A stretch of 62,450 bases of DNA, the filler included, from Stramenopiles sp. TOSAG23-3 (lineage: Eukaryota), in NCBI GenBank assembly GCA_900128585.1. It is 8 parts of 8 records of this genome, joined end to end, with 100 filler letters (N's around TTAATTAATTAA, not from the genome) between each part and the next. Parts side by side here need not be neighbours in the genome. Positions count along the whole stretch, not along the records: positions 34,312 to 45,614 come from LT642746.1; 7 more parts are not named here. The stretch is one strand, 5' to 3'. Shown here in pieces: positions 11,357-60,727 of this stretch; within the stretch, counting starts at the first letter, position 1, and each line of letters opens with the position of its first letter. Position numbers and translations under genes: made by a program. The notes beneath the pieces were generated by a model, which did no database searches, was not told the origin of the DNA, and worked only from the letters and a program-made list of their open reading frames with translations.

Positions 11357-11456
11357 NNNNNNNNNNNNNNNNNNNNNNNNNNNNNNNNNNNNNNNNNNNN
11401 TTAATTAATTAANNNNNNNNNNNNNNNNNNNNNNNNNNNNNNNNNNNNNNNNNNNN
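11357..11456. other. Artificial contig spacer (44 N + TTAATTAATTAA + 44 N); identical spacers at 22787-22886, 34212-34311, 45615-45714, 56978-57077, 58804-58903, 60628-60727
   Basis: Identical 100-nt structure seen seven times. The linker has stops in all six frames, and contigs are ordered by decreasing length. Confidence 0.98.
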
Positions 11457-17436: not shown

Positions 17437-18021
17437 GAAGATCAACACTGAAGCAGGTCAAAACGCAAGTTCACTTTATACACAGCCGAACATGTCAACG
17501 GAATAGGGCCAAAAGAAAACACGATGTTCTTCTTATCACACAAGTTTCAGTAATTCTATAAACAATTTTTGTACGCCTTGTAACAATTGGTTCAGGATAA
17601 AGTCTAAGTTTTATATGATATTAGACGACTAGTATATTCAAATTTCAAAAGGACGCTTCTTCGCTGTCCTCTCCCCTCCAGCCTCCAGCGCAGACGACAC
17701 ATCTCAAACCATATTTTTTTAATAATAAAATTTAGTCAACAAAAATAGCGCAGCAGTTTGGTCATTACCGGTTCGGTGGGTATGGGTAAGTACCTTGGTA
17801 TTACAATAATCCGTACAACTTTTGACAATATATAATAAAAAACAAGAGTGTTTCTTCTTCAGTTATTGCAAATGAAGAAGAAGAACAAAATCAAATCCAT
17901 CCCAAGTTTCTATTAATACCGAGATGACCCATAGATGGAAAACGTTTTATTAAGACACACTTAAAAAATGAATTTAAGAGACAAGAGATTACGTTTCAAG
18001 TTATATACTAAAAATACAATT

Positions 18022-22022: not shown

Positions 22023-22886
22023 CTATAGTATAAGGAATCCATGCTAAATAATATAATATACATATTCCATGCATTGTCTTGTTCAAAGACAGCCTTCATT
22101 GTAGTTCGTTTTGTACGCATCGGTGCAATTACGTTTAAAGTATGGAGAAGGTAAGTGCATTACCGTTAAATTATTTGGAAGTGAAACGTTCCCATGGATG
22201 TAAAAACAATGTAGTAGTACATATCATGTACCATAATTATTTAAATATATCATATGTTATTTTTACTTTAGAATACTTTTCATAAGAATGTATTTAAATT
22301 GTAAAACAACGTACCACGAAGTTGAAAAAAATTCGTTTTTCGTGAATCTCTTTAAGAAACAATGTCATGATTAAGGAATCTATGATAAAACAAAGGAACC
22401 TTCTTTCTTGGTATTATCTATCCTGTATCCCTTTTATATAAAATGCTTTGGTTTGAATTAAAATGATGTTTGATTCTATGTTCTTATTAATAGTATCCCG
22501 AATCGACAATGTGGTCACCATTATAGATACAGGCAATACAATATAAAAAAGGGAAAACTTTAATCTCTCTATCCATCTCATAATGATCACCCTTAATTCT
22601 GGCTTAGTTCGCCCAAGCCTAATTTTTTGTAACGAATATATGAGACTCTTATATTCTTGTATATATAAGAAAGAGAAACTAATAAATTTAAATAGGATTA
22701 TTATGTAATATTATTTATATTTTATCAACCCTAACCATAACACTAACCTATATGATTGTGAGAGAAGAAGAAGAAGAAAATGATCANNNNNNNNNNNNNN
22801 NNNNNNNNNNNNNNNNNNNNNNNNNNNNNNTTAATTAATTAANNNNNNNNNNNNNNNNNNNNNNNNNNNNNNNNNNNNNNNNNNNN

Positions 22887-33342: not shown

Positions 33343-34397
33343 CCTGATAGACGAAGCGTTTACTTGAATGCAATTGGAAATGACTCCAGCTTCTCGTCGC
33401 AGATCTTCAGGAAAGAAATTATAAAGCAGTGCGTACGTCTGAACGAAACGAGGAGAAAGACTTCGACCTTGGAGAAGGTAGTATTGTAATTTTTCAGTTA
33501 TAATTAATAAAAGAAAGGTTAAAGTAATTTTTAATGAAGGAAAGCCATATCATCATCACACCGGATAAAAAAGTTATTTAAAAAAATATCATACTATAAC
33601 CATCCTATTCCATACCTTAGATAAGAATCTCTGTCTTGTTTCATTTATACTATCAGAGACAAAGCTTTACTCTATCTATGTAAATACAATATCCTATTTT
33701 GGAGGAAGTATTAAATACATATAGAATAAGGATTCTAAACGAATGAAAATTAATTTAAATAAAAATGAAAGACAATTATAAAATACTATACCTAAATAGA
33801 ATAGTAAAAATATGGCCCTTTCGTTCGTTCTTCGTTGTTTGTTTCTTTTTTGTTTTTTCCGATTATCTTTTATCGTTTTTCATAGTAGTGCTGTGCTATT
33901 TATTAATGACTAAAGACTTCAGAAATATTCCTTGGTATTTATATATAGTCGTCCGTTCTAGTTTAAATAGTCATTCGTCAATCGATAGATGTTATTTATA
34001 GGGTACGTATTTTTAATTGTACCTGAGTGCTGTGTGGTCTGTATTGTATTTTATTATTAATCCTCATTTTATTGTTTTATGAAGAAGCTAGAAAAGTATA
34101 AGTTAACCTAATAAATTAGTCTACTTAAATATAAAATAACGAAGGAGCGAGAGAAGGAGAAGAGAGAAGAGAGAAGAGAGAGATTTTTTTAATTATCTTA
34201 ATAAAGCTTAANNNNNNNNNNNNNNNNNNNNNNNNNNNNNNNNNNNNNNNNNNNNTTAATTAATTAANNNNNNNNNNNNNNNNNNNNNNNNNNNNNNNNN
34301 NNNNNNNNNNNATATATTTATATCAACAAAATTTAAGTTACGAAAAGTAAGTTACGAATTAAACAATGGAAAGTCCATCTACTAAAACAACTAAAGT

Positions 34398-34632
34398 AAT
34401 GCTATTTGATGTCTTTACATTTTGCCATTTTTTTAATGGCTCCTATTCCAGATACAGGAAATAGCATATTATGCTATTTGATGTACTTAGTTTTTGCCAT
34501 TTTTAAAATTGATACACCTATGCTATTTCCATATGCACTACTTTTTGACATTTTATCCCATGCTATTTCCATATGCACTACTTTTCGAAATATTAGCGCT
34601 TTTTTGCTCAGTATTTTTTTGCTCAGTATTTT
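34398..34632. repeat. Degenerate minisatellite upstream of the Ubl-Dam gene
   Basis: Repeated units atgctatttgatgt x2, atgctatttccatatgcactactttt x2, ttttttgctcagtatt x2. Confidence 0.7.
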
Positions 34633-34934
34633 TTTTTATTTTTATTTTTTCTTTAAGCTTTGAAGTTTTATCTTTCAATATAAACACAGTATAGAAGAAG
34701 AAGAAGAGATCCAGTATTTAACTGCTCAGTATTTTACTCCTCCCCAAAATGTAGTACCCGTACAGGTAGACTGTACCTGGTACCTGTACACCGAGATGAT
34801 TACTTGGTATTATTATTACTATTACACATCCTCATTATTAATTATTTTTAAAATTTTTTATAGTATGTATGAGGAAAAGAAACAAACAGTAACAAAGTTG
34901 TTATCAAAACAAAACAAATCAACTAAAAAACAAA

Positions 34935-37886
34935 ATGAAAGCAACTTTAACTTTTACATTGTTCACCGTTGCATTATTATGCAGTGGTGGTGCTCATGGC
35001 GTTCTGTGCCATGGAACGAAAACCCCATCAGTGGCGGATCGCGCCACTTTAAACATCAACGTCACGACTACGCCAGAAGAACCCGTTCTTCTTCCACTTT
35101 TACCAAGCCTAAAAAAGGATAAAGGGACACATCCGTCTCCCGCATCCTATTCTGAGGGTAGGTGGGGGGCTGATGGGAAGACGTGGACCGGGCCGAAAGG
35201 GACGGGGGGTCCTGACCAAAGCGCATTCGCTCCAGGGGGAGACCAGGAATCGTTCTTCGGAGCAATGGCTCGAACGTACATTTTGTTCCCTATCCACGCG
35301 ATACTAAGTCGCCCACAAAAAGCTTGTGCAGTGTTCTTCGCTTGCAGTTTCTCGGTGGGTGAAATCGACGCAGTTGTGCAGAGCATCGCCGCTCTCCACG
35401 CAAAAGATTTCGTCGCACCGCTACTCATGGTTGCCACCCTTGTGCTGGTTTTCATGGACTGTCTACGTGCCGCCGTCGAACCAATCGAGAAGGCGCCCCA
35501 CCAGTGCCCTGGTCGCTTCCAATTCTTTGTCAAAGTGAACGGCAAAACCATCACAATCAACGCACACACCTCGGACACTATTGCCACAATAAAACACAGG
35601 GTTAAGGACAAGGAAGCAATACCCCCAGCGAAACTACGCCTTCAGTTTCACGGAAAAGACCTGGATAATGAGAAATCCGTCGGCAACTACAAGATAATCC
35701 GCGAAAGCACGATCCACGGGTGCTTGAGGGGACGTGGAGGCATGAAACGACCCTCTCGCGTGACCAATGGGTATCAAGTAGAGGGAGGCGATTTGACCTG
35801 TCACGGCCTTAAGGAAAATAACTACTGCCGTTCAAAATTTGAAAATGATGCTTCGTATATATCCTCATACGACGGCCATCAAGTGTGTCAGGACTGCTAT
35901 GACACCCTCCTTCAACCCGCATCTAATGGCTACAGACCAGTGACGACAAAAGAAAAAAGAAGAAAAAGAAGAAAAAGAAGATATGGCAGCGGAGGAAGCT
36001 CTTCTTCTACTACTCGTCGTTCGACAACACTCGGCATCAACCTGCAGTCTGGACATGGAGTATCGACGGTCACTCCTGTGGCATCTGCTACAGCTGGACA
36101 CGGTACGATTGCTACAGATGGCAGCGGAGGAGGAGGGATCTCTTCCTCTTCGAGTGGCGTATCGACGCCCAAACCTGTAGCGTCTGCTACAGCTGGACGC
36201 AGAAGAACAACAAGAAAAAGAAGAAGAAGAGATGGCAGCGGAGGAAGCTCTTCTTCTACTACTCGTCATTCGACAACACTCGGCATCAACCTGCAGTCTG
36301 GACATGGAGTATCGACGGTCACTCCTGTGGCATCTGCTCCAGCTGAACGTAGGACGATTGCTACAGATGGCAGCGGAGGAGGAGGAAGCTCTTCTTCTTC
36401 AAGTGGCGTATCGATGCCTAACCCTGTGGCGTCTGCTACAGCTGGACACAGGACGAGGGGGAGAGGAGGAAGCTCTAGAAAAGAAGATAAAAAAATACCG
36501 GATGATATTTTGGATCTGTTACAAGAAAAATTTAACAGGAAGAAACCCTTTTTTGTGCCAGGCGAAAATGGCCTAACAAGTGACTGGGACAAAACGAACA
36601 AATGCCTAATCTATGTCACCTCCAAAAGAGGAGCTTGGATGAGCAAGGCTGTGAACGAAGGTAAGAAAGGCGCAACGGTTCTTGCTATTTTCCCGGCAGG
36701 GACCACTACAGAGTGGTTCAAAAAATGTATTCTTGAGAATATAAATACAAACCGGGAACTGAACTGTAATGAGAACCCTTTAATCAAGAGATTTTACGCG
36801 ATCCGTGGCGACATCCATCCGAAGCTAGGCGCCAGTCTTATGGTGATAATGGGCCCTAACTTGTCGGGACCTACAAAAGTCAATTGGATCACATTTAAAC
36901 CACCCCGAAGGCGTAGGCAGGAAGATGCTGAAAATGACAAAATTGACAAATTCAAAACATTCACCCCTTGTGTTATAGAGAAGCTGTCCAACACATTCAA
37001 TGGGGGCGAACCGATGGAAGACCTCCGCTCGCACGAACCTGGCGCAGTGCTAAACAATATCACCCTCTTCTTTTCTTGTACAAGAAATATCGGTAAATGG
37101 CTTAAAAGGGCGCGAGATCTCGTGGAAAGTAACGACGGGGTGAAAGCCGTTGGCCTCATTCCTGCAAGGACGAATAGCTATTGGTTTTCTGATCTCATTC
37201 TTACCCCACCCTGCCCCACCAGTTTGTTGTTTGTGCAGCAAGGCGTACCGACGCCGCTGCCAGAAGGCGAAAAAAATAGATGGCCGGTGACTATGTACCC
37301 AATGTGCGTGGTAGTCTTGGAGAAGACCAAAGGGAGAGAACAGGCTACACTTGGTGATATAAAATTCAAAACCCCGCGTTTACCGAGATCCCGACCGACT
37401 GTATGGATTGAGGGACGTACTAACATTGAAACGGGAAATGATACTGCGCACGTAGAAGAGCCCGTGCATCAGCTCCAGGGCCTAATTGGGAAGATGTGTA
37501 TCTTTAAATTGAGCAACGCCTGGAAAAAATATGCGGTTAGCAGTGTTCACGACCGGAACGTCCGCTTCAGTTGCCCTGGCGACCAATTTGCAATACTACA
37601 ATACGCACAACTTAAAGAAAGGGTTAAGGACCCAGACTCTTTCCGATGGGTGCAAAGCGAAACACGTGAAGAAGGAAACCTCTCCGCTGTCCATGACAGA
37701 GCGCGGTGCAACCGTTGCCCAGCAGATCGACCAGGTTTGATTAAGTGGTGTTGCGCAAATGTCTTCATTTGTTCGCATTGTGATCTTGCAATCGCCACAA
37801 ACGAAATTGATCTGACGACATTGCCCTCTGACGATGATGAAACGGCAGATGAGGAGGAAGTTGTACTAACAACGGCGCACATCTAA
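34935..37886 (+). CDS. Multidomain protein: signal/TM segments, ubiquitin-like domain, Cys cluster, duplicated S/T/G-rich repeat, two degenerate phage-type Dam (N6-adenine MTase)-like domains, C-terminal Cys/His Zn-finger-like motif
   Basis: FQFFVKVNGKTITI..DTIATIKHRVKDKEAIPPAKLRLQFHGKDL..YKIIRESTIHGCLRGRGG (ubiquitin-like, ends in GG); WMSKAVNEGKKGATVLAIFPAGTTTEWF and IGKWLKRA..AVGLIPARTNSYWF..YPMCVVV (Dam-like); CNRC..CCANVFICSHC. Confidence 0.8.
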   Translation: MKATLTFTLFTVALLCSGGAHGVLCHGTKTPSVADRATLNINVTTTPEEPVLLPLLPSLKKDKGTHPSPASYSEGRWGADGKTWTGPKGTGGPDQSAFAPGGDQESFFGAMARTYILFPIHAILSRPQKACAVFFACSFSVGEIDAVVQSIAALHAKDFVAPLLMVATLVLVFMDCLRAAVEPIEKAPHQCPGRFQFFVKVNGKTITINAHTSDTIATIKHRVKDKEAIPPAKLRLQFHGKDLDNEKSVGNYKIIRESTIHGCLRGRGGMKRPSRVTNGYQVEGGDLTCHGLKENNYCRSKFENDASYISSYDGHQVCQDCYDTLLQPASNGYRPVTTKEKRRKRRKRRYGSGGSSSSTTRRSTTLGINLQSGHGVSTVTPVASATAGHGTIATDGSGGGGISSSSSGVSTPKPVASATAGRRRTTRKRRRRDGSGGSSSSTTRHSTTLGINLQSGHGVSTVTPVASAPAERRTIATDGSGGGGSSSSSSGVSMPNPVASATAGHRTRGRGGSSRKEDKKIPDDILDLLQEKFNRKKPFFVPGENGLTSDWDKTNKCLIYVTSKRGAWMSKAVNEGKKGATVLAIFPAGTTTEWFKKCILENINTNRELNCNENPLIKRFYAIRGDIHPKLGASLMVIMGPNLSGPTKVNWITFKPPRRRRQEDAENDKIDKFKTFTPCVIEKLSNTFNGGEPMEDLRSHEPGAVLNNITLFFSCTRNIGKWLKRARDLVESNDGVKAVGLIPARTNSYWFSDLILTPPCPTSLLFVQQGVPTPLPEGEKNRWPVTMYPMCVVVLEKTKGREQATLGDIKFKTPRLPRSRPTVWIEGRTNIETGNDTAHVEEPVHQLQGLIGKMCIFKLSNAWKKYAVSSVHDRNVRFSCPGDQFAILQYAQLKERVKDPDSFRWVQSETREEGNLSAVHDRARCNRCPADRPGLIKWCCANVFICSHCDLAIATNEIDLTTLPSDDDETADEEEVVLTTAHI
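35962..36450 (+). repeat. Intragenic tandem duplication, 249-nt (83-aa) period
   Basis: atggcagcggaggaagctct starts at 35983 and 36232; the two units are nearly identical. Confidence 0.93.
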
Positions 37887-38022
37887 CTGTTTGAACAGAC
37901 CGGGAACAAAAGATTTTAATAACTAAGAAGGCGATTAGAGAAAACTTGATCGTAAATAGTATTGTTCTTTTAAATACTAGAATAAAATATTAATAGTTGG
38001 CTTAACTTATAACTTCTCTCTT

Positions 38023-39427
38023 CTACAACACCAAACTCATGCAGTCCCTAAATTTCTTCTCGAACAATTCCTCTGAAAAGCGTTCGCTGGCATGGCTTCT
38101 CGCGTTGGTCCTTATTTTCGATTTCTTTGCTGGGGACAGGCTGAACACGTTGGCCATGGCTTCCGCGTACTCCTCTGGTTCTACAGCCAAAAACCCAGTC
38201 GCACTGTCGTTTCCCACCTTTGCGCCCGTCTGAAAGCTGGGCACCACAATGTCCATTTGGGGCCCTGCGGAATTGTGCGCAATCGGTATGGCCCCGGCCG
38301 CCTGCATTTCCACCACTCCAATCCCAAAATGTTCATTCCACATGGTGTGCATACCAGCCTCGGCTCGGCCGAGCCAGGACACGAGCTCGTCCCAGGTAAC
38401 GTTTCGTCGCAGCTCTACATTGTCCGCGACGCCGCACTCTTTTGCGTACACCTCCAGCCCATTCGCCAAAGCCTCGTCTCCTTTGTTTCTACAGCTCCCA
38501 ATCATAACCAACCGGACGTCCTGGAACTTTTTCCTGTCGCTGCGCTCCTTCAGAAGAATTTTCATTGCCGCTATCTGCCGCCGTTGGTCTTTCTCCGGGC
38601 GGAATTGCGAGATTGAGACCACGACCCTTTCCCTCTCCTTCCCATCTATTGGAAGCTTTTGCAACCGCGTCGTATCGCAAGGGGGATAAACGACGTGGGT
38701 GTTGCTTTTGGTGCGTTTCCACAACGAGCGGACGTGGCCGCCGGTCCAAGACGAGTTCACCATAACGACGTCGCAGAAGAAGCCAGCCCAGCTGTACGCG
38801 TACGCAAAAAATCGGTAGTACCATAGTTTCACAAACGTGCGCGTGGTGCTGCTTGTGATGGCCCCGTCGTTGTTGTACGTCGGCCGACGTTCGGCGACGC
38901 GCTTCAACATGTCTTCGCTGATGGTGGGGTAGTGCACGTACGCCGCCGTCCGGCACCCGCACAGCTTGGCGAGCGGCAGGGTGAACGCACAGCCTGTGGT
39001 ATCGATAAAAACGTCCGGTACAAACTGCCAGAGTGCCTCGAGGGCGACGATCATCGACCCAAAGCTCTGCCCCAACATCGTAAAACGGGGCCACGCCGAC
39101 GCCTCTAGCAGATTCCTTCTCTTCAATCGAACAAACCTAGGCTTGTTTTTCAAGATTATGTTGAAACGGTTCAAGCAGCGCTTAAGAATATCCTCGTCCG
39201 GCTCAATGTCACCGGTGTAAATGGTCACTGGGATGTCAGACTCTTCCATTGCTTTCACCGCTATCCATAAGACCCGTTCGCCCCCCCCCACACGTGTTGG
39301 CGTACGGATGAAAGAAGGCTATGCTTTTCGCCGGGTTTTTCGACACTTTGAAAAGGTACGAACGGACCAACAAGAGCACCACCAGCCCGCCAACCACCGC
39401 CGACAAAAGCGCATGGTAGTACAGCAT
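38023..39427 (-). CDS. ALG11: GDP-Man:Man3GlcNAc2-PP-Dol alpha-1,2-mannosyltransferase with +1 frameshift in a homopolymer (39281-39289)
   Basis: TM anchor and SIAFFHPYANT in one frame; GGGERVLW, YVHYPTIS, SQFRPEK, MWNEHFGIGVVE in the next. Removing one G from the G9 run restores FFHPYANTCGGGERVLW. Confidence 0.93.
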
Positions 39428-39696
39428 GCTCACTGCGGAAGAAAAGAGGTCCAACTGAAGAAGGACCATAGTTATCGTTAAATGCCACAACAAAAATCAA
39501 ACCTTTCTTATTGCACGTTGCAAGATAAGCACACGCGCGCGGAATATAGATACACAGAAAGAGAATGGAAATTTGGGACTCAGAAAGAGAATGGAAATTT
39601 GGGGATTTAAATTAGAAATGGAAAGAAACCTAAATTATTGTTCTTTTGAACATTACCACATACGATTAAAAAAAAACTACTTTAAAATTATTTATT

Positions 39697-39935
39697 TAAA
39701 AAAAAAAAAAAAAATGAAAAAGAAGAAGAAAAAGAAGAAGAAGAAAAGGAAGAAGAAGAAGAAGAAGAAGAAGAAGAAAGAAGAAGAAGAAAGAAGAAGA
39801 AGAAAGAAGAAGAAGAAATGAAGAAGAAAGAAGAAGAAGAAAGAAGAAGAAGAAGAAGAAGAAAGAAGAAGAAGAATAAGAAGAAGAAAAAAAAAAGAAA
39901 AGAGAAAAAATAAAAAAGAAGAAGACAAAAGAAGC
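39697..39935. repeat. poly-A / (GAA)n microsatellite
   Basis: Long A run followed by an imperfect AAG repeat tract. Confidence 0.95.
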
Positions 39936-40451
39936 CAAGCCATAATTAAGGATATGTATTTATAGGAATAATGGAATGAGACACTTTACAATGATAAATC
40001 CATTGTAGATATAAGTATTTAAATGAAACCATTTCTTCAATATTAATTATAACTAAATAGAATGAAAAAGTAATAAAAATATACCTCTTTTACATACACA
40101 CAGTATATATAATATCATTATTGAACATTTCCTTTTGAATTTTGGTGGATGGATTATCTGGTCCATCCCTCTTCCCTCTCCTCCTCCCTCCTCTCCTCAT
40201 CTTCTTCTTTCTAATAAATAATAATAATAATAATATAATAAAAAAATCAATCTTAAAAAAAAAATAAAATATTGTATCTTTTTCAAGGAACGAATTGAAA
40301 ATAGTATTTAGAAGAAAGAAGATGAGTAAGCATGAACAGTGTCCTCCATTTGAATGTTTAGAAAGATAGCTATTAATACCCGTTCGGTCCTTCTTCAGAC
40401 AATACAAACCATCAACAGTATTAGTTACACGCAAAGTACAACCCATCATCC

Positions 40452-41732
40452 ATGTTTTTTTCTAGGCTTGCTTCCAACGTTGCCGCACGAAGGGCGCTGG
40501 GTCGTGTTTCCACGCGGTCCGCATGGAGCGGCGCCAAACGTTTCCATCGCCGCACAAACACTCGTAGTGCGTTTCAAGGAATGCCAGCAGTATTCTTAGG
40601 GTCTTCAATTGCCATCGGTTCCGCGTTCGCGTTTGCAGAGGGCGAAGAGGCAGAGATCGAGTGGGGTGCGCCAGTCGGCGGGCCCCTTGGCGAGGGCGAC
40701 AGTCTTGCGGTGGAGAAGGAGTACCCGTTCAAGAAAGAGAGCAACACCGTGCTCTCGAACCGCCACAGAGTTGCCCTGTGTGGGTGGCCAATAAGGGGCG
40801 CGCGAGATATTGACGACGAGCGCGTAAAGGATATGCATGCATTGTTCGAGCACGTATGGAACTCGAATTACGACGGCGTTGAGATATCTGTGGAAGACTT
40901 TCGAGCCCTGTACCCGGAAACGTTCCGTGGTATGAGTGACGTGGAAGCGGCTAAAGTGATAAAGGAGACGGCGGAAGACCATGGCGTTTCCGTGCTTGGC
41001 ACACTGTACTTGGTGGGGGACGGGACCGATCGTGTCCGACCGTGGGATTTGGATTTCAGCGACGAAAATTTTTACCAAAAAATGGAGGAGAAATTGACCG
41101 CCGACAGAACAGCAGGCGCGGAATACGTCACCTACCAAATCGGTTTGCCCCCAAAGTACATGAACACCGGCGGGGCGTACCGTGGGGATACAGAATATTA
41201 CGACCTTACCGTGGACCGCCTTCACAAGCTTAGAACGCTGGCAAACAATGTAGGGTTGAACATTTATTTCGAAACGCACATCGAACGAATCTCGGAGGAT
41301 CCCATCGCCTTTACCGATATTATCGAACGATCCGAAACCTTGAGCGGTCGGCCCTTCGAGGAGGTGAACGGCGACCTTTCCCATTACATCTATTGTGGCA
41401 TCACAAAAGGCGCTGCCCTGGATAAAATTCTGAAACGAGTGAACCACATGCACCAAAGAATGGCCCGTCTGTATGGTGATTTTTCCTCCGAAGTCATCAA
41501 CCCCGCGGAGGACTGGGAGGCCAAGGGCTGCACGTACACTGCGTTCCAACTCTCGTCGAAGGCATTAAAGGGTGGCCTTTCCAGCCGCACAATTAGTGGA
41601 GAAACGGGGCCAATCCATTTGGTAACAGACACGTTAACCCACGATGCAAAACTGGTTCCACTCTTTCGAATGATGGCACTCTACGCAGACGGTGAAATTA
41701 CAGACCAAGAAGTTAAAAATCCTTTCCTGTAA
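40452..41732 (+). CDS. Xylose-isomerase-like TIM-barrel (sugar-phosphate isomerase/epimerase family), probable mitochondrial presequence
   Basis: YDGVEI, YFETH, GDLSHY, HMHQRM, GETG metal-ligand pattern; Arg/Ser/Ala-rich N-terminus. Confidence 0.7.
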   Translation: MFFSRLASNVAARRALGRVSTRSAWSGAKRFHRRTNTRSAFQGMPAVFLGSSIAIGSAFAFAEGEEAEIEWGAPVGGPLGEGDSLAVEKEYPFKKESNTVLSNRHRVALCGWPIRGARDIDDERVKDMHALFEHVWNSNYDGVEISVEDFRALYPETFRGMSDVEAAKVIKETAEDHGVSVLGTLYLVGDGTDRVRPWDLDFSDENFYQKMEEKLTADRTAGAEYVTYQIGLPPKYMNTGGAYRGDTEYYDLTVDRLHKLRTLANNVGLNIYFETHIERISEDPIAFTDIIERSETLSGRPFEEVNGDLSHYIYCGITKGAALDKILKRVNHMHQRMARLYGDFSSEVINPAEDWEAKGCTYTAFQLSSKALKGGLSSRTISGETGPIHLVTDTLTHDAKLVPLFRMMALYADGEITDQEVKNPFL

Positions 41733-42551
41733 TTTCATCCCAGTTTCAACCCGAATAATATACATTATAAAATGGCTAATACGAGGGACACATGATGATT
41801 TTGAAACCTGAGGAGATATCATTTTTATTTTATCTGTAAGAAACGTACTCGATTCGGATCATGCATGGAATCAAGCTTAGTTCGGGACGTGGCGTCCCAG
41901 GCCTTCCGGCCAAGGTCGCTGATGCGATTGTGCTGGGCCCGAATAGAATCAACGGACGCTTTGGCAAGGGCTGTGGAAAGTTCTGTGGCTGTGGACGCTT
42001 TGGACATGGGAATGATAGTCAAGACTAAGTGAAAAGGTAGACTATATTTGATTAGTAAAATCACAAGAGCTGAGCTAAGTTCGCAATACATGAAGGTGCG
42101 TAAACCTTTAATGGACAAAAGGAGCAGATTCATTTTCACGGTACACGATTTTAATTTACTTAGATACGTAAGATACTCAAACATTTGTTCTGCATACCCC
42201 CACCCCAAGAAGAAAAAAAGAACCCACTGCCGGCCACCACCGCCGATTTTTATTATTATTATTTTAAAATTCTTGATACTGTGTCGATGTTAAATAATTT
42301 CATCTAAAAAGCTACTCTACCACAAATTTCTCTCTCTCTCCTCTTCTTCTGTTCTTCTCTATAAAAGTAGTATCCATTTCCCAATTTTTGATAAGAGACA
42401 ACACTTTCTTTTTATAGATATTAATACAGTAGAAGTGAAAGTGTGAAAGAAAAGGATTTCAAATTCACAGTAGAGCAAGTCGAACAAAGCAGTTGCTTGT
42501 TGTTACCAGTTGGTTTGAACGATAGTTGTTTGTTTTTGTATTTTTTGAGAA

Positions 42552-42630
42552 TCATATATTTTTCATCGTCATCTTCGTCATATTTCACAATGGTTTCTTT
42601 TGTTCTCTCAACAAAGTGTATGGTAGGTAC
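42552..42630. repeat. 79-bp perfect inverted repeat, partner at 45536-45614
   Basis: tcatatatttttcatcgtcatcttcgtc...caacaaagtgtatggtaggtac equals the reverse complement of the last 79 nt of the contig. Confidence 0.93.
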
Positions 42631-43250
42631 TGTTGGGATTGTTTTGTCTCAGCACAACCTTTGTGGTTGCTCAGGCCGGGTGTCCTTGTGAAAGCCTAGG
42701 GACTTACTGTCAATACGCACCACCTGATTCACCGTGTCCAAGGAAAGGAGTCTGTCATGGTTACCCAAACTCCACCTGCAGTTGCAACGATTGTCCAAAA
42801 CCAGATTCTTCGTGCAAAGGGTGCAGTCCGTCCCCCGGTCCAACCCCCGGCCCGTCCCCCGGCCCATCCCCCGGCCCATCCCCCGGCCCATCCCCCGGTC
42901 CACCCCCAGGCCCTTGCCCAGACGGATACTTTGAGTGCAACTGTTATTGCAACGCAGGCGACACGATTTACGGTTCATTTGGATGCAACTGTGCAAACTA
43001 CAAGCCATTGCCGGCGAGTCAGCAAACGAAATGTTGTGGCGGGGAATATGGCTTCGACGCTTGGTGCGCGAAGGCAGGGACGCCGTCGGCGAAGAGTGCA
43101 ACATGTAGCAACCAGACAACTTCTGGGTCACCGACTCCACCAGGAGACTTTTACGAGTTTGGAACGTACAAACGATGTGTCAAGGGGCACTGCAACGCGT
43201 ATTTTTGTGACAACCCCAAGCCAGATTACCCAACGGGATGCCAGGGATGA
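42590..43250 (+). CDS. Secreted Cys-rich protein with (PGPS)n linker; 5' end needs a 1-nt frameshift or a splice
   Basis: Cys-rich domains flank PSPGPTPGPSPGPSPGPSPGPPPGP. ATG 42590 (MVSFVLSTKCMV) plus VLLGLFCLSTTFVVAQA forms a signal peptide if one G near 42626 is removed. Confidence 0.75.
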
Positions 43251-43591
43251 TTGATTAGTTAAATTCATGTGTTATGAAAAAACAAATTATAGTATGATAT
43301 GCTTTAAGACTCTCATTGTGTTATGAAAATTTTTTTTTTTATAAGTATCATGTTTTAGTCAGTGAAAATAAATCAAATATGAACGTACTAAGGGACGCAT
43401 TTTGTTTTTTTTACCCGGAAGTACGGAAGTATCAAATTAATTTTAGTAAAACTTGGTACGAAGAAGCTAAATTTAATTACTTAAATAACAGCCAATTTTC
43501 TTGTTTTAAAACTTAGTGCAGTCGTTGCTGCAGCACAATAACACCAAGAGCTTATTAAACCAATCCCTGCTCGCGTTTGTACGAAGGGATC

Positions 43592-45538
43592 TCAATGGTG
43601 CTGCTTCTTCGAAAAACGGTTGAAGTCTGAAAATCCCAGGGGGGCAAACGATTCTTTCTTCTTCGAGTTCGGCGAGTGAAAGTCTTTGAAAGTCGGGATT
43701 TCCGGGACAAAAAACTTGCTGGCATTAAAGTCACCGTCGTTCAAGCCCTCGTCGTCCCTTCGCGTTGATCGGAAGCGATCGGGCCCGTCTTGCTCCTTCT
43801 TCTCGTCCTCGTGCATTCGGCCGCTGTTGCGGCTTTTGTTCTTGCTGCTGCTCCTATGGTCGTCGTTGCGCGAGCGCCGACTTTCGCCCTTCTTGCTGCG
43901 GCGCGAGCCTCCGCCGTTCCCGTACTTGCTGCTCTTCTTCGAGTAGCCCCCCCCTCCATCCCGGGGCGACCGGTCCCTTCGGGAGCGACTGTCGTGGTGG
44001 TAATCGTCCCCTTGCCTCGAGTCGCCCCCGCGCCTCCTTCCCGCCCCCCGGGAGTCGTAACTGTCCTCGTGGTCGTTGTAGCCCCCGCGCCCCCTGTCGT
44101 CGTACCCGTCGTCGTCGTAGTCGTGGTGCCCCCCGCGGCGGCCGCCGTTGCTGCGGTGCTTCTTCTCTTCGTCCCGCCTCCTACGCTCCTTGCGGCGCTC
44201 CTCGCGCTCGCGGTCCTTTCGGGACTGCCGGCTGTCGACGCGGCTTGGCTTCATTTTTGAGTTCGAAACCTTCATCAGGCGCTGCTTCCCCGAGTTCGAT
44301 CCCAACGGGGGGGTAATCGGGGGGGAAACCCCGTTTCGCCGGCCCGGGTAGTTCTGTTGGCGCGCGATGCGGCTCGGCTTCATCTGCGTCTGCCCAAACT
44401 TGTGTGACTGCACGTTGGACAGCGTGACTTTGGGTTTGGACTTGGAGGGTTGTTGTTGGTGGTGGTCCGCCCTGGAATTGGAGCGAATCGAGAGGTTCGG
44501 CGACGGCGGCGGGCTCGACCGGTCGCTCCCACGGTCGTGGTCCCGCCGGCTGCTGCGGCCTTCCCGGTGGTGGTCGCGGTGGTCCTTGTGCCGGCTGCTG
44601 CGGCCGTAGCTGCGGGACGAGTCCCGGTCGTCGTCGTCGTCCCGGTACCGCCCGCCGCCTCGCCTGGAGTCCCTCGAGTGCCGGTCCCTCGAGTCCCGGT
44701 CGTCGTCGCGGTACCTGCCCCGGTCCTCCCGACCATGCCGGCGGGAGTCCCGGTCGTCGTCGCGGTAGCGGTCCCCGCCCCGCCGGCGGGAGTCCCGGTC
44801 CCCCCCGTTGCTCCCCCGGGACCCGGTCCGAGAGTCGCCGCGGCGCCCCCCCCGGTCGTACCGCCCGTTGTCCGAGTCCTTGTCGTCGTCCCGGCGGTAC
44901 CGGCTCGACGGTCGGCTGTCCCGGCCGTGTCGGTCGCTCTTGCCGCTGTGTATGCGGTCTTGCTTGTCGTACTCCTCTTTCAGCCCGTGGAAGAAGGCGT
45001 TCTCCAGGCACTCCGCTGCGGTGGGGCGGTCCTTTGGGTCCCTCTTGACGAACAGGCTCATCATGCTGTAGGCCCGCTTGGTCAGCTTGCCGACGTACTT
45101 TCGCTGCAGCGTTTCCGGGCGCGTCATGTCCGGGAACTTGAGCCCCAAAAATCGCGGGTTCCGAAGGAACATTTCCATCTGGTCGGACGTCAAGGGCCCG
45201 AGGACCTTCTGGATGATGTACAGCTGGTCGATCTCGCTCTCCCCTGGGAACATCGGCTGCCCGTCGATCAGCTCGCCCATGATGCACCCGACGGCCCACA
45301 TGTCGACCGTCTTGTCGTAGTTGGTCGAGCCGAGCAGGAGCTCGGGCGCACGGTACCAGCGGGTGGCGACGTAGTCGGTGAGCTGCTGGCCCGGGTGGGT
45401 GATCGTCCGCGCGAAGCCAAAGTCACACAGCTTTAGGGTGTGGTCGGGGTTGACGAGCAAGTTCTCCGGCTTGATGTCGCGGTGAATAACGTTGTTCTGG
45501 TGGCAAAAGTTGATCGCCCGGCAGAGCTGGTAAATGTA
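43592..45538 (-). CDS. CDKL-family (CDKL5/LF5-like) Ser/Thr kinase, N-lobe missing, long R/D/S/G low-complexity tail
   Basis: YIYQL, IHRDIKPENLL, KLCDFGFAR, LTDYVATRWYRAPELLLG, FPGESEIDQLYIIQKVLGPL, NPRFLGLKFP. Confidence 0.92.
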   Translation of the reverse strand, partial: YIYQLCRAINFCHQNNVIHRDIKPENLLVNPDHTLKLCDFGFARTITHPGQQLTDYVATRWYRAPELLLGSTNYDKTVDMWAVGCIMGELIDGQPMFPGESEIDQLYIIQKVLGPLTSDQMEMFLRNPRFLGLKFPDMTRPETLQRKYVGKLTKRAYSMMSLFVKRDPKDRPTAAECLENAFFHGLKEEYDKQDRIHSGKSDRHGRDSRPSSRYRRDDDKDSDNGRYDRGGRRGDSRTGSRGSNGGDRDSRRRGGDRYRDDDRDSRRHGREDRGRYRDDDRDSRDRHSRDSRRGGGRYRDDDDDRDSSRSYGRSSRHKDHRDHHREGRSSRRDHDRGSDRSSPPPSPNLSIRSNSRADHHQQQPSKSKPKVTLSNVQSHKFGQTQMKPSRIARQQNYPGRRNGVSPPITPPLGSNSGKQRLMKVSNSKMKPSRVDSRQSRKDREREERRKERRRRDEEKKHRSNGGRRGGHHDYDDDGYDDRGRGGYNDHEDSYDSRGAGRRRGGDSRQGDDYHHDSRSRRDRSPRDGGGGYSKKSSKYGNGGGSRRSKKGESRRSRNDDHRSSSKNKSRNSGRMHEDEKKEQDGPDRFRSTRRDDEGLNDGDFNASKFFVPEIPTFKDFHSPNSKKKESFAPLGFSDFNRFSKKQHH

Positions 45539-46326
45539 CCTACCATACACTTTGTTGAGAGAACAAAAGAAACCATTGTGAAATATGACGAAGATGACGA
45601 TGAAAAATATATGANNNNNNNNNNNNNNNNNNNNNNNNNNNNNNNNNNNNNNNNNNNNTTAATTAATTAANNNNNNNNNNNNNNNNNNNNNNNNNNNNNN
45701 NNNNNNNNNNNNNNAGTTGGGGGTCTGTGTTGGGGGGTCTGTGTGGAGAGAGGAGGGGGCGAAAGAAACCAGAAGTCATTCCTGGCTATACGTAGAGTAG
45801 TAGGGAATAAGTTTCATGTTTCCTATTAATAAAACAATTAAGAATAAAGATAATAAGTACAAAATTATTCTATTCATGAACAAGTATGTATACAAAGAGT
45901 TATAGATGTGTGAAACCAAGTACATCACTTTTATATTGATTTATAAGATTGGCAAGAAAACATAGAATAATTGGAAATATTGTACTTGTCACTAATACTG
46001 TCACTACTACAACTATAGAATTGAACAACTTATTTATAATTATAACAACATCTTCTGATGATTAAATAAATACAAAAAGGAACAGATGGAACAGAACAGT
46101 ACAGTACAGTACAGTATGGTCAACACAATTATTATTTAATTAATTAATAATTAATTGTATCACAGAGGACGACGGAGGGACGGGGACGTCTTAAATAAAC
46201 ACGGGATGGGGACATGCATTTCGTACCTAGGCATTCGTCCCAACGGTCCCGGAAAAGAGTTTAGGGTTAGGATTTCGGGGCAGTCGTTTCAGAGAGGGGA
46301 TCAAACATACGAATACCCCCCCCCCC

Positions 46327-49052: not shown

Positions 49053-52000
49053 ATGGAAAATATTGCCCCGACAAACACTCCGAAAAAACGGTTGCCACTT
49101 GGGCAAAAACTTGGGCTGTCGTCTACCCCCCTATCTCAAATAGGGACCCCCAGAAGTTCTTCGAATGATGCCACTGATGCCGTCAAAGTGTTCGTTCGAA
49201 TAAGACCATACATTGAGCCCGAGGATGAAGACAACGGTTTCGGAGATGGCGGAAGGGAAAGCGTTGACTACGTTCACATCCACTCCCACGGCAACCAGAT
49301 CTCTCTTTCGAAGAAGAAATTTGCATTTGACAATGTTTATGATGCCTCTTCGTCTCAGGAGAACATATTTAGTGATGTAGGGAAACCAGTGGCCGACGCC
49401 GCTCTCCAAGGCTATAATGGGACGGTTTTTGCATACGGCCAAACAGGATCGGGCAAGACGCACACCATGATGGGCGCCCCGGAAGATCCAGGGCTAATCC
49501 CTCGCGTGATTCAGTACATGTTTCAGGAACTGAAGCGGAAGTATAGCGATGCCGACGGCATCAGTTTCAAGATTAGTGTGTCATACCTGGAAATTTACAA
49601 TGAGCGAGTTGTTGATTTGCTGGATGTGGAAGCAGGTACGAAGGATTTGCGTGAAAACACTAGAAAGAAGCAAGTGTACGTGGAGGGTTTAGTTGAGAAA
49701 GAAGTCTCGTGCCCCAAGGAAGCTGCCGAGTGGATGGCAGTCGGAAACAACAACCGCAAGGTCGGAAGTACAAAAATGAACAGCCAGTCTAGCCGTTCAC
49801 ATGCCGTGTTTACGCTCAACGTATCTATAGCATCAATGCAAAGCGGAGTGAGAGTCACGAACTGTTCAAAGGTTAACTTGGTTGATCTTGCGGGAAGCGA
49901 GCGCCAGGGAAAAACTAAGGCCACAGGGGAGCGCTTGAAGGAAGGCGCCAACATAAACAAAAGTTTGTCCGCGCTGGGCAACGTCATTAAATCCTTGGTC
50001 TCTGCCAAGAAATGGCACGTCGCCTACCGGAATAGCAAACTTACGTTTTTGCTCCGCGACAGTTTAGGAGGAAACTCTCAAACTTCAATCCTGGCAGCAG
50101 TTTCTCCAGAAATATCGAACGCTGCTGAGACTTTGTCTACTCTTGAATTTGTCCAAAGGGCAAAAAAGATAAAAAACAAAGTGATGAAAAACGAAGATAC
50201 GGCAGGAACCAACGAGAGCCTTCGCCACCAAGTTCGGTTGCTACAAATCAAACTAGATGCGGCCACAAAGATGAATGAAGAAGCAATGGCCAAGACGCAA
50301 GAGAACAGGGACGAGGAAGTCCTTGCACTACAAACAAAGTTGGAAGACGCGACCGAACGAGCAGTCGCTGCCGAAAGGCAGCTGGAAACCGTGACGCTAC
50401 ACCATGCTATGAACAAGCGAAGAGACAGTTCTTTGAGGGATTCGGTTGGTGGCTTCAGCCCTATCATGCCCCCGCTGAAAGAGCGATCAAGCGAAGAAGA
50501 GCTTTCTTGCAACGAGATAAAGATTGATTTTGGAAACGAACGGCGAACAACGTTGCAGCTAATGGAGGACAGTGTTCGCTTATCAACAGGTGATGTTGAT
50601 AAGATAAACTGGCGTCAATCGATCGAGTCCTTGAACATCCAAGCTCGAGAGTCCGTTGACGGGGTTGAAGCACCTTTATTAACGTTGCAGATACAAACCT
50701 TGCGACAGGAAGTCGAATCGCTTAATGTGGAACTAGAATGCGCGAAGAAACAAATAACTGATTTGCGAAATGTTCACGAGGAGGCCTGCGAACAAAATGC
50801 AATACTACTTCGTTCGAAAATGGAGCTGCAAACACATGTGGGCGACTTGGAGTTTCAGTTTAGGATTCATGAGCGTGCCAAGTTGAAGCGAAAAATACTC
50901 CCAGTGGATCCTGTATACGTACCCGAATACGCAAAAACAGAGATGGGGCTGCTTCGGGAAGAAAATAGAAACTTGTTAGGGGAACTTATGGCAGCGCGCC
51001 ATCGTGCACTGTCGTTTAAAGTGTTCAAAGACTTGGAGGCGTTGAACATAAAAAAGCATCTGAGAAAAATCTCGACATCCATGCAAAAGTTTACCGAAAA
51101 CGCCACGATTGAAAATGCCAAGAAGAGGAAGGCAGCCAAATGTTTGAAAGACTACGACGAAAGTATTGGGAACGAATTCGGAAACTGGACAATGTTGTCT
51201 GGAGGGGCGGCAGCGAAAGGCAAACGGCAAAACGTTTATTTCGTACCAAGTACATTTGCCTTTGATGGTAGCGTTGTTGGGGACGATTTGGATGACATTT
51301 CCAAGAAGGTTAAAAAGATTTCCGCTTACAATGTATTAGAACATTTGAAACAAGGATCAGGGGCTGTCGATTGGGATAAATTTATCTCAGCCGAAGGAAA
51401 AAGCGTGCGCGACTCGAAAAGCCGACTACGCAATGAGATTTTGGAAAGATGGCTAGTAGAGCACAGGCTTCAAACTTTTAGCAAAGCAATTTCAAAATGG
51501 GTAAAGAAAAAGAAGCAGGCAGGTGATGTGTCAGACGTATTGCTCATGAGTGAAAGCGATTTGAAAACAGTGGGAATATCTAAAGATGAAAAGGCACTGG
51601 GACGCTTCAATGCCGCGAAAGAATTGTTTGAAGCAACACTTCCTAAAGACGAAGCCAAAAGACACGAAAAGGACCCGGGAGACGTGACAGGAGCAGACAG
51701 AGTGTTAGAGCAGGAAATCAAGCTTACTCCAATACAGGCGCTGAAGAAGAAGTACGGCAAACGGAACACCGCGAAAAAGGCTGCAAACGCTGGCAACATC
51801 GAAGACCTTTTGGTCTTGATAGAGACTTCTGAATTACACGAAGGGCTGTACTGGTGTGCTCTGGAGGGGCATCTAGACATGGCCACTACCATTTACAATA
51901 AGCTAAAATTCAAATCTTCAACATTTGATATCGATTTGAGAAATGACGATGGCGACACTGCTTTTCATATGGCCTGTCGGAATGGCCATGCAGAATGTGC

Positions 52001-52424
52001 AGCGTTTTTGAAAGAGTGCGGTTCAAACATTAATACTACTGACAACGACAGCAGCAGGCCGATTATGGATGCTGCATACAACAATAATGTAGAAGTAGTA
52101 GAGTACCTCATCGGGCAAGGTGCCGTTTTGAAAGAAGTTGACAAAGATGGGATGAGTGCATTGGACTATGCCTACAAGAAGAAAAACAAACAATGCATTC
52201 GTTTGATTGATGAAGCGATTGGCGAGCCAGAAGCTCCAAAAACGGGCGGTAGACAGCGCCGCCGTCGCCTTGGATCTAGAAAACGTATAACATACCTTGA
52301 AGTTGCGGATGATGATGAGGGTGATGTTTGCCAAAAGGAGGACCCAGAGGATGATGATTTTGACCCCACTGTGGACGAAGATATTGCGAGCGACTCGGAT
52401 GAGGACGATTTATTTCTTTCTTAG
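49053..52424 (+). CDS. Kinesin (N-terminal motor, kinesin-12/KIF15-like) with coiled coil, SAM-like domain and ankyrin repeats
   Basis: VKVFVRIRP, GQTGSGKT, NSQSSRSH, LVDLAGSER, YRNSKLTFLLRDSLGGN; ankyrin GDTAFHMACRNGH..GSNIN, GMSALDYA. Confidence 0.93.
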   Translation: MENIAPTNTPKKRLPLGQKLGLSSTPLSQIGTPRSSSNDATDAVKVFVRIRPYIEPEDEDNGFGDGGRESVDYVHIHSHGNQISLSKKKFAFDNVYDASSSQENIFSDVGKPVADAALQGYNGTVFAYGQTGSGKTHTMMGAPEDPGLIPRVIQYMFQELKRKYSDADGISFKISVSYLEIYNERVVDLLDVEAGTKDLRENTRKKQVYVEGLVEKEVSCPKEAAEWMAVGNNNRKVGSTKMNSQSSRSHAVFTLNVSIASMQSGVRVTNCSKVNLVDLAGSERQGKTKATGERLKEGANINKSLSALGNVIKSLVSAKKWHVAYRNSKLTFLLRDSLGGNSQTSILAAVSPEISNAAETLSTLEFVQRAKKIKNKVMKNEDTAGTNESLRHQVRLLQIKLDAATKMNEEAMAKTQENRDEEVLALQTKLEDATERAVAAERQLETVTLHHAMNKRRDSSLRDSVGGFSPIMPPLKERSSEEELSCNEIKIDFGNERRTTLQLMEDSVRLSTGDVDKINWRQSIESLNIQARESVDGVEAPLLTLQIQTLRQEVESLNVELECAKKQITDLRNVHEEACEQNAILLRSKMELQTHVGDLEFQFRIHERAKLKRKILPVDPVYVPEYAKTEMGLLREENRNLLGELMAARHRALSFKVFKDLEALNIKKHLRKISTSMQKFTENATIENAKKRKAAKCLKDYDESIGNEFGNWTMLSGGAAAKGKRQNVYFVPSTFAFDGSVVGDDLDDISKKVKKISAYNVLEHLKQGSGAVDWDKFISAEGKSVRDSKSRLRNEILERWLVEHRLQTFSKAISKWVKKKKQAGDVSDVLLMSESDLKTVGISKDEKALGRFNAAKELFEATLPKDEAKRHEKDPGDVTGADRVLEQEIKLTPIQALKKKYGKRNTAKKAANAGNIEDLLVLIETSELHEGLYWCALEGHLDMATTIYNKLKFKSSTFDIDLRNDDGDTAFHMACRNGHAECAAFLKECGSNINTTDNDSSRPIMDAAYNNNVEVVEYLIGQGAVLKEVDKDGMSALDYAYKKKNKQCIRLIDEAIGEPEAPKTGGRQRRRRLGSRKRITYLEVADDDEGDVCQKEDPEDDDFDPTVDEDIASDSDEDDLFLS

Positions 52425-56977: not shown

Positions 56978-57077
56978 NNNNNNNNNNNNNNNNNNNNNNN
57001 NNNNNNNNNNNNNNNNNNNNNTTAATTAATTAANNNNNNNNNNNNNNNNNNNNNNNNNNNNNNNNNNNNNNNNNNNN

Positions 57078-58803: not shown

Positions 58804-59165
58804 NNNNNNNNNNNNNNNNNNNNNNNNNNNNNNNNNNNNNNNNNNNNTTAATTAATTAANNNNNNNNNNNNNNNNNNNNNNNNNNNNNNNNNNNNNNNNN
58901 NNNTTCTTTCGTTCACGCAACGTGAATACTTACATGTTGGTATCCAACGTGTTCAGTTTGATCGATCACCTCCCCCAGGCTGCCGTCGAACAAAATTGAT
59001 GTTCTTCGAGCACCCTAAAATATCAAAAAGACAATAACTTATTTTAATAACATAATCACAGCATTGAAAATAAAAATAGAAGAAGAAGAAAACGAAGATT
59101 CAATGTGAATAAGTATAAATAAATGTATTCTTATTTCCTATATAATAGTATATTTACAACCCAAC

Positions 59166-60296: not shown

Positions 60297-60727
60297 TCTT
60301 CTCTCTTCGGAACCAAAAAAAAAAACACGCCAAAAACTACTATAAATTACCACGTGTTTTTTTCTCTGGTGTTGTTCAAAAAATTTAGACCGACCCTTCC
60401 TTTCTTTTACAAAATATAAAGAAACTGTTAAGTTCTTCATCAAAATATAATCTTTTTTTTTGTTGTGGTACGGTATCCGGCGCGGTGCGCGGCGGTGGTC
60501 GTCGTTTGTTTTAGGAGGAGGAAAAGGAGGAAGGAGGGAGAAAAAAAGAAGAAGAGAAGAAGAGGATGGCATTTTTTATTTTATTTATTATTTTAAAAAC
60601 TACTAATATGATACATAAATAATGAAANNNNNNNNNNNNNNNNNNNNNNNNNNNNNNNNNNNNNNNNNNNNTTAATTAATTAANNNNNNNNNNNNNNNNN
60701 NNNNNNNNNNNNNNNNNNNNNNNNNNN

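Follow-up and report, generated by a model that had tools for sequence, protein, structure and literature searches.

Is a protein that joins a ubiquitin-like domain to two degenerate phage-type Dam adenine methyltransferase domains an enzyme, the relic of a mobile element, or a cellular protein with another task? The question is raised by an open reading frame (ORF) of 983 codons from Stramenopiles sp. TOSAG23-3 (assembly GCA_900128585.1), which lies on contig LT642746.1 in the window considered here (the whole stretch of 62,450 nucleotides that was analysed). An initial annotation of this DNA had described a GG-ending ubiquitin-like domain fused to two related Dam domains that lack the catalytic NPPY, and this description was confirmed by Pfam, hhalign and alignments; the strings it quoted (LRGRGG, IPDDILDLLQEKF, NGLTSDW, GATVLAIFPAGTTTEWF, TPCVIEKLSNTF, IGKWLKRA, AVGLIPARTNSYWF, YPMCVVV, YVTSK, and FFSCT) are all present in the translation. 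It is highly probable that the gene is real and that its architecture includes dead Dam domains. As an overall reading we favour, with moderate confidence, an expressed, lineage-restricted cellular gene coding for a ubiquitin fusion in which a tandem pair of dead phage-type Dam domains would act as a non-catalytic binding or adaptor module.

The relationship of the two segments to Dam proteins was assessed with several profile methods. Domain 1, which comprises an N-terminal helix, NGLTSDW, YVTSK at the NPPY position, a GAW..KA helix, and PAGTTTEWF, reached 28.3 bits against the Pfam family Dam (PF05869; cut-off 28.1) when scanned alone, matched PHROG_111 ("DNA methyltransferase") with an E value of 3.3e-07, and was aligned by hhalign with a profile of 13 small Dam proteins (98.7%, E = 4.1e-16). 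Domain 2, with FFSC at the NPPY position, an IGKWLKRA helix, IPARTNSYWF, and YPMCVVV, matched PHROG_111 with an E value of only 0.057; hhalign aligned its C-terminal half, and this half only, with the small Dam profile (97.6%, E = 3.9e-12), and it matched domain 1 of the homologous protein P0002 described below (E = 7e-08) as well as domain 1 of its own protein (E = 7e-05 over 37 residues). A phmmer search with residues 501–983 against 1.84 billion representative sequences gave 18 matches at E <= 1e-3, namely P0002, 15 proteins of 100–256 amino acids, one protein (P0019) found through its C-terminal cysteine motif, and one false positive with fibronectin repeats. Ten of these 18 were scanned with Pfam, eight of them exceeding the Dam cut-off, and the remaining eight align as Dam proteins. 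No usable lead for the tandem region came from the ESM Atlas, where the best score (0.91) belonged to an unnamed cluster and one cluster carried Dam on 14% of its members, and the profile of alignment A2 had no match at E <= 10 among PDB sequences. Judged by the sequence and profile comparisons, both domains are homologous to the small phage-type Dam enzymes.

Two motifs that define this family are missing from the protein. NPP[YF] is present in 13 of 15 aligned small Dam proteins; its position is occupied by YV-T(SK) in domain 1 and FFSC in domain 2, and by VKPK and FFAR in P0002, the motif being absent from all four domains of the two proteins. The loss is also deeper than the replacement of NPPY that had been claimed. 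In domain 1 of both proteins the 12–14 residues bearing LDxCA are deleted in the alignments, and in domain 2 the N-terminal half, where LDxCA would fall, is not alignable by hhalign. The LDxCA strand is presumably the first strand, which in class I methyltransferases lines the cofactor site. As NPPY and this strand are both lost, methyltransferase catalysis by the Dam-like pair appears very unlikely and binding of S-adenosylmethionine doubtful, and because the two defining motifs are lacking, the protein would not count as a functional member of the Dam family. An enzyme that still transfers methyl groups, or has acquired some other activity, through a non-canonical site would be compatible with the predicted retention of the fold and with the survival of the family motifs NGL..DW, G.W..KA, and PA.T..WF, but is barely credible in view of the loss of NPPY from every domain and of the LDxCA strand from domain 1 of both proteins.

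The fold was predicted with AlphaFold from a 17-row alignment of the tandem region. The mean predicted local distance difference test score (pLDDT) of the model was 67.7, with about 80 in domain 1 and 60–80 in domain 2. Among the viral models of BFVD, the first three rows were DNA N-6-adenine methyltransferases with E values of 1e-05 to 1e-04 (one of Clandestinovirus, 1.2e-05, and two phage Dams). VIA, a structure search independent of Foldseek, retrieved PCIF1/CAPAM (Z 7.9), CamA (6.7), E. coli Dam (6.0), and T4 Dam (5.4) for model residues 1–138, which represent domain 1, and RlmJ (Z 5.9), METTL16 (5.6–5.7), and TaqI (5.5) for model residues 154–301, which represent domain 2. The top ten of the VIA list are all methyltransferases, mostly with adenine-N6 or restriction-modification titles, and cover both domains; it is the consistency of this list, and not any one score, that carries the fold assignment. 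A methyltransferase (Rossmann-like) fold is thus predicted for both segments by AlphaFold, BFVD, and VIA, as the initial annotation had expected of a genuine Dam derivative. The model has four strands in each domain, and five strands are given for transposon DAM domains in the available text of a study on that subject (10.64898/2026.05.21.726589). A predicted complex of domain 1 with domain 2 scored 0.15 against a mark of 0.34, a value obtained with no controls run and without bearing on an intramolecular pseudo-dimer.

The only relative with this architecture among the 1.84 billion representatives is P0002, a protein of 812 amino acids from an assembled contig of 2.7 kb. The search for such architectures that the initial annotation had proposed was successful in one case, in which NPPY is not intact. 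P0002 is laid out in the same way, with the ubiquitin-like domain followed by a linker, the Dam-like pair, and a long tail in which cysteine motifs come last, and scores 44.4 bits against PF05869. The ubiquitin-like domains of the two proteins are 48% identical, and ESTIHGCLRGRGG at the end of this domain is the same in both (13 of 13 residues); the tandem regions are 38% identical over 359 aligned residues (BLASTP, E = 1e-54), or 43% identical in alignment A2. The linkers and tails of the two proteins do not align, and conserved domains between diverged linkers and tails are the pattern expected from constraint on the domains. The architecture thus appears to be conserved and not that of a decayed relic. 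P0002 and its cluster mate P0020 differ at four of 812 residues, all outside the ubiquitin-like and Dam-like domains and too few to weigh. The ubiquitin-like domain of P0002 is seven residues shorter near the second strand (its residues 44–60, compared with window positions 35517–35600), which may be a deletion or a feature of the assembly. Using alignment A2 and longer lengths, a word-index search recovered P0002 alone, one of 8000 candidates being scored, whereas word-index protein searches with the whole protein and with residues 500–983 returned nothing, not even P0002, such blanks reflecting the sampling of words. Relatives sought via alignment A1 gave 594 pattern matches in metagenome contigs and 175 in viral contigs, none confirmed in either, and the exact protein, in its full form and with four alternative starts, is not in the protein collection.

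The gene was also found in environmental data. DNA of the gene occurs in marine and seawater runs: 20 of the 24 rows listed, from 12 studies, contain some of its sequence, and in five of them half or more of the words sampled are present. Among the contigs listed from RNA libraries, 13 from four libraries of four studies match with no difference, in pieces within 35343–37930. These exact contigs show no joints, so no intron is seen. The AT-rich spacer at 34500–34833 was uncovered in all four RNA libraries. Variants among the RNA contigs amount to eight substitutions, one of them synonymous, and one in-frame deletion of 3 nt; they come from mixed strains and are too few for a test of selection. 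Expression of the gene is likely rather than proven.

These observations also bear on the possibility that the ORF is the functionless, decaying relic of a DIRS or long terminal repeat (LTR) retrotransposon or an integrated virus. Such an origin would agree with the degenerate motifs, with the giant-virus Dam that is the best BFVD row, and with the view, in the available text of a study of eukaryotic DAM proteins, that these are mostly transposon-linked and that orphan copies are mostly remnants (10.64898/2026.05.21.726589). Nevertheless, the 983-codon ORF is intact, its four-part architecture is kept in P0002 at the identities given above while the linkers have diverged, exact RNA-library contigs exist, and the 3-nt deletion of the environmental variant stays in frame. 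Furthermore, no Pfam match to a reverse transcriptase, RNase H, tyrosine recombinase, or capsid was obtained in this or any other ORF of the contig, transposon or viral domains of any kind were lacking from the ORF and the rest of the 11.3-kb contig according to Pfam, and no direct, inverted, or terminal repeats bracketing the gene were found, the contig sequence upstream of it being limited to 623 bp. No second copy of the gene lies within the window. We regard a relic as very unlikely; neutral decay, which the initial annotation had named as the outcome that would overturn its proposal, is contradicted by the homologue and the RNA contigs, and its suggestion that the gene is element-borne finds no support in the Pfam and repeat results for the contig.

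The genomic setting points in the same direction. The window consists of eight contigs (five of about 11.3 kb and three of about 1.7 kb), which need not be adjacent in the genome and are separated by seven N44-TTAATTAATTAA-N44 spacers (Table 1). Neighbourhoods that span these spacers are therefore not real, and the ORFs to the left of position 34212 are not neighbours of the gene. Its own contig comprises positions 34312–45614, the start codon being preceded by only 623 bp of AT-rich sequence. The G + C content of the ORF (0.42–0.56) is similar to that of the other genes of the contig, that of spacer DNA being 0.11–0.32. Because a mannosyltransferase gene (ALG11) and a protein kinase gene are encoded on the same contig at similar G + C content, the ORF is taken to be a cellular gene.

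Table 1. Features of the ubiquitin–Dam fusion gene, its contig, and the window (positions count along the whole window).
Feature	Position	Strand	Description or basis
Whole ORF	34935..37886	+	983 aa; translation; no intron seen
Signal-peptide-like N-terminus	34935..35000	+	aa 1–22 (hydrophobic window aa 5–25); Kyte-Doolittle 19-aa window mean 1.64
Strongest hydrophobic segment, candidate transmembrane helix	35409..35465	+	aa 159–177; Kyte-Doolittle maximum 2.39 in aa 151–184
Ubiquitin-like domain	35517..35741	+	aa 195–269, ends LRGRGG, then Met270; PF00240; aligned to ubiquitin 2–76
Cys cluster, possible zinc finger	35799..35897	+	C289, C298, C318, C321; Cys positions
In-frame tandem repeat	35954..36451	+	2 x 249 nt (83 aa), 91–92% identical
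Dam-like domain 1	36486..36899	+	aa 518–655; Pfam, PHROG, hhalign, AlphaFold
Dam-like domain 2	36957..37379	+	aa 675–815; hhalign, match to P0002 domain 1, AlphaFold
CxxC-x10-CC-x5-CxxC, zinc-ribbon-like	37707..37781	+	aa 925–949; followed by acidic tail
ALG11 mannosyltransferase gene	38023-39291	-	Pfam; convergent with the ORF, same contig
Xylose-isomerase-like TIM-barrel ORF			Same contig, after ALG11; Pfam
ORF without any Pfam family			Same contig, beyond the TIM-barrel ORF
Protein kinase gene			Same contig, truncated by contig end; match begins at profile position 102
Spacers between contigs	11357-11456, 22787-22886, 34212-34311, 45615-45714, 56978-57077, 58804-58903, 60628-60727		

The ubiquitin-like domain is the most readily recognised part of the protein. 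Its match to PF00240 (residues 198–262) reached 52.5 bits compared with a gathering score of 25.4 (E = 4.1e-14), and ubiquitin was the best match among solved structures in the PDB (single units with E values of about 1e-17 to 1e-18), where the matches include ubiquitin–eL40 and ubiquitin–eS31 fusions. The alignment spans ubiquitin from Q2 to G76, with about half of the positions identical as counted from the alignment, and places the terminal GG in register with G75–G76 (LRGRGG on LRLRGG, RGG on R74-G75-G76). K48, R42, R72, and R74 of ubiquitin are kept; L8 is changed to V, I44 to Q, V70 to C, L73 to G, and K63 to R, so that neither the canonical recognition surface (L8, I44, and V70) nor the tail residue L73 is preserved in the alignment. 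Integral ubiquitin-like domains generally lack an RGG tail, and ubiquitin fusions are normally cleaved constitutively. Since the RGG tail is conserved, processing after Gly269 can be argued for: ordinary deubiquitinases would cut at this site, as they do in fusions of ubiquitin with ribosomal proteins and of Fubi with eS30, and would release a C-terminal product of 714 amino acids beginning with Met270. We consider the chances that this cleavage occurs to be about even. A second RGRGG (in RTRGRGGSSRK, 36447–36476) located just ahead of Dam-like domain 1 resembles the LRGRGG tail and probably belongs to low-complexity sequence of the RGG type in the linker.

Ahead of the ubiquitin-like domain, the initial annotation had placed an N-terminal membrane anchor. 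In addition to the signal-peptide-like start and the candidate transmembrane helix, a weaker hydrophobic segment is found at residues 130–149. The ATG at 34935 is the first one beyond the AT-rich spacer and has an A-rich context; at this point the G + C content rises from about 0.26 to 0.53, and the N-terminal part has a coding-like value of 0.53–0.56 compared with 0.25–0.32 in the spacer. The 164 codons upstream of Met165 are open; when this stretch was shuffled 20,000 times with its composition preserved, it stayed open in only seven cases, and its two alternative frames contain five and six stops. The log-odds of codon usage, weakly positive in the frame of the ORF, do not decide the case of the N-terminus. 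Because of the open frame, the jump in G + C content, and the position of the first ATG after the spacer, residues 1–194 are taken as coding, and in Stramenopiles sp. TOSAG23-3 the anchor region probably is. In contrast, P0002 has about 40 residues before its ubiquitin-like domain and no hydrophobic segment there. Given its absence from the sole homologue, the anchor does not count among the conserved parts of the system, and it would seem to be peculiar to this organism's version of the protein. The proposed anchor therefore holds to the extent that the shuffles point to a coding region here, but not as a general feature.

A more elaborate scheme, in line with the full model of the initial annotation, would make the anchor functional: the precursor would be tethered to a membrane, and regulated cleavage by a deubiquitinase after the GG would free a nuclear C-terminal part that reads DNA or N6-methyladenine (6mA). 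The hydrophobic segments in a stretch that is so rarely open by chance, its coding-like G + C content, the GG in register with ubiquitin, and the K/R runs described below would all fit. Yet the sole homologue is without the hydrophobic segments, the constitutive cutting of ubiquitin fusions leaves little room for regulation, and nothing supports the reading of 6mA, which makes the scheme quite unlikely. In the reading of a cellular ubiquitin fusion with a non-catalytic module, the precursor may begin membrane-bound in this organism, by way of the signal-peptide-like sequence and the membrane helix, and not in the homologue.

The remainder of the protein is made up of linkers and cysteine motifs. 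The linker that contains the tandem repeat is rich in S, G, and T (residues 346–515 comprise 37 S, 31 G, 23 T, and 20 R among 170) and has K/R runs such as KRRKRRKRR and RRRTTRKRRRR. GAA runs within it (36196–36233) draw very deep, unrelated RNA contigs. Between Dam-like domain 2 and the C-terminal cysteine motif about 110 amino acids have no assignment. Three short metagenome proteins (P0019, P0021, and P0022) also have this motif, in the form CxxCP...PGL[IL][KR]W...N.F.C..C. At E <= 10, Pfam returned nothing meaningful for the N-terminus, the region after the ubiquitin-like domain, or the C-terminus (one chance-level row), an AlphaFold model of the C-terminal 143 amino acids based on four sequences had a pLDDT of 38.9, too poor for any fold call, and the best ESM Atlas score for the C-terminus (0.76) gave no usable lead. 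WGR- or Tudor-like segments considered in the tail of P0002 were dropped, as Pfam at the same threshold gave nothing meaningful on its C-terminal half.

Taken together, the parts suggest how the protein might work. The Dam-like pair would not methylate and would probably not bind S-adenosylmethionine; it may instead form a non-catalytic unit, an adaptor, for nucleic acid or for a partner enzyme, and the basic repeats and zinc-ribbon-like cysteine motifs may aid its targeting to the nucleus or to nucleic acid. If the pair has been kept under constraint after the loss of its motifs, an enzyme fold would have been turned into a binding or adaptor module. That it binds DNA or RNA directly, instead of serving as the partner of an active enzyme, is a possibility that we put forward only tentatively. 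Inactive partners have precedents, since METTL14 supports METTL3 and DNMT3L supports DNMT3A. A dead pair that does not itself read nucleic acid, and is instead the scaffold or regulator of an active adenine methyltransferase whose gene lies elsewhere, would be in keeping with two degenerate active sites in domains whose cores are kept, with partners of the METTL14 type, and with a fungal clade for which the available text of Iyer et al. (2016; PMC4738411) describes a second, inactive methyltransferase domain. However, the window contains no other copy, and both domains are dead here, unlike the active-plus-inactive tandem of the fungi; we judge this explanation rather unlikely. The most far-reaching proposal, which regards the domesticated pair as a new eukaryotic reader of nucleic acid modification that starts as a membrane-anchored ubiquitin-fusion precursor, is cleaved after the GG, enters the nucleus, and binds adenine-methylated or Dam-site-like DNA, is decidedly improbable. 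Binding of DNA or 6mA, if true, would provide a further type of reader where few are available; without it, the protein is an orphan architecture, though a well-documented one, from a marine protist that is abundant.

Several points weigh against the reading of an expressed cellular gene with a non-catalytic Dam-derived module. The function is deduced from lost motifs and accessory features, and the family consists of two proteins, with conservation resting on one comparison. In the whole protein PF05869 stays below threshold (25.0 bits compared with 28.1), and domain 2 has no Pfam match to this family. A Foldseek search of the PDB had no row at E <= 1e-3, although methyltransferases make up many of the rows listed, and Z scores of 5–8 are in the middling range on VIA's own scale. 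With the hydrophobic patch and the tail of the ubiquitin-like domain altered, recognition by standard deubiquitinases is not assured. The RNA evidence consists of low-depth assembled contigs, and DNA can occur in RNA libraries; none of the listed contigs without differences lies on 34935–35342, and the N-terminal 136 codons appear to be supported by openness and composition alone.

Other features of the window were noted in passing. On the contig of the gene, the spacer after ALG11 contains a long purine tract rich in GAA/AAG (39698–39958), and a perfect inverted repeat of 79 nt (42552–42630 and 45536–45614), whose second arm is the extreme end of the contig, encloses the kinase gene and may be an assembly chimera or a fold-back at the contig end. 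On other contigs, an ORF of more than 3785 codons (2–11356, minus strand) spans an entire contig and is open at one end, and an ORF of 612 amino acids (15607–17448, minus strand) has both a match to DUF3089 (E = 2.9e-44) and a weak one to NUDIX, barely over the cut-off. A protein of 1123 amino acids (49053–52424, plus strand) with a kinesin motor and C-terminal ankyrin repeats has an identical sequence in the protein collection, in a six-member 90% cluster from several public sources.

Comparison with known systems helps to place the protein. It resembles the small phage-type Dam enzymes (PF05869, PHROG_111) in its order of motifs, that is a TP..LF..L...F helix, (D/N)GL..DW, a G.W..KA helix, PART.T.WF, F.KGR..F, and a last hydrophobic strand, and in its predicted fold, but differs from them by the loss of NPPY, by the deletion (domain 1) or unalignable state (domain 2) of the LDxCA strand, and by the tandem arrangement within a eukaryotic protein of 983 amino acids that is fused to ubiquitin-like and cysteine-rich parts. 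The link of a Dam-like pair to ubiquitin-type processing is unusual. Ubiquitin–eL40, ubiquitin–eS31, and Fubi–eS30 are ubiquitin-fusion precursors, which likewise have a ubiquitin-type domain ending in GG with an unrelated protein directly after it; here, in contrast, the cargo is a multidomain product of 714 amino acids and not a ribosomal protein, 40 (P0002) to 194 residues precede the ubiquitin-like domain, and cleavage is only predicted. UHRF1, too, is a chromatin protein in which a ubiquitin-like domain occurs together with zinc fingers and a reader of the methylation state of DNA; it has no sequence relation to the present protein, it reads by means of an SRA domain, and its ubiquitin-like domain does not form part of a cleavable fusion.

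Among eukaryotes, PF05869-type Dam domains are reported from retrotransposons, viruses, and a few clades of horizontal origin, and they retain the catalytic triplet, as far as the available texts of two studies go (10.64898/2026.05.21.726589; PMC4738411). The first of these counts 10,030 eukaryotic DAM proteins, most of them transposon-linked and retaining Asn-Pro-Pro, the exceptions being a few horizontal-transfer and viral clades. The methyltransferase domain of DIRS elements is detectable by PF05869 according to the accessible part of Muszewska et al. (2013; PMC3783388), and DIRS1 copies are regarded as inactive and derived from PCIF1 in that of Iyer et al. (2016; PMC4738411); PCIF1/CAPAM is also the best VIA row for the present protein. 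The DAM domains of DIRS and LTR retrotransposons thus share with it a PF05869-type domain in a eukaryotic polypeptide (PMC3783388; 10.64898/2026.05.21.726589), but theirs are part of pol polyproteins with a reverse transcriptase and keep Asn-Pro-Pro in the portion of the source consulted (10.64898/2026.05.21.726589), neither of which applies here. The available text of Iyer et al. (2016; PMC4738411) lists 13 eukaryotic acquisitions of N6-adenine methyltransferases, with no ubiquitin-fused tandem Dam among them, the words "ubiquitin", "tandem", and "domesticat" have no occurrence in the main text of 10.64898/2026.05.21.726589, supplements not covered, and literature searches found no description of a ubiquitin–Dam fusion. 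The closest parallel in kind is with METTL14, DNMT3L, and the second domain of fungal clade-4 N6A methyltransferases, in which the fold is kept and the active site disrupted and which serve binding or regulation, not catalysis, in the account available from PMC4738411. These pseudoenzymes belong to other clades and have an active paralogue alongside, whereas the present tandem consists of two dead domains without a known partner. By its sequence, the protein would represent a eukaryotic co-option of the phage-type Dam domain, in an architecture undescribed in the literature examined and, in this case, as a pseudoenzyme.

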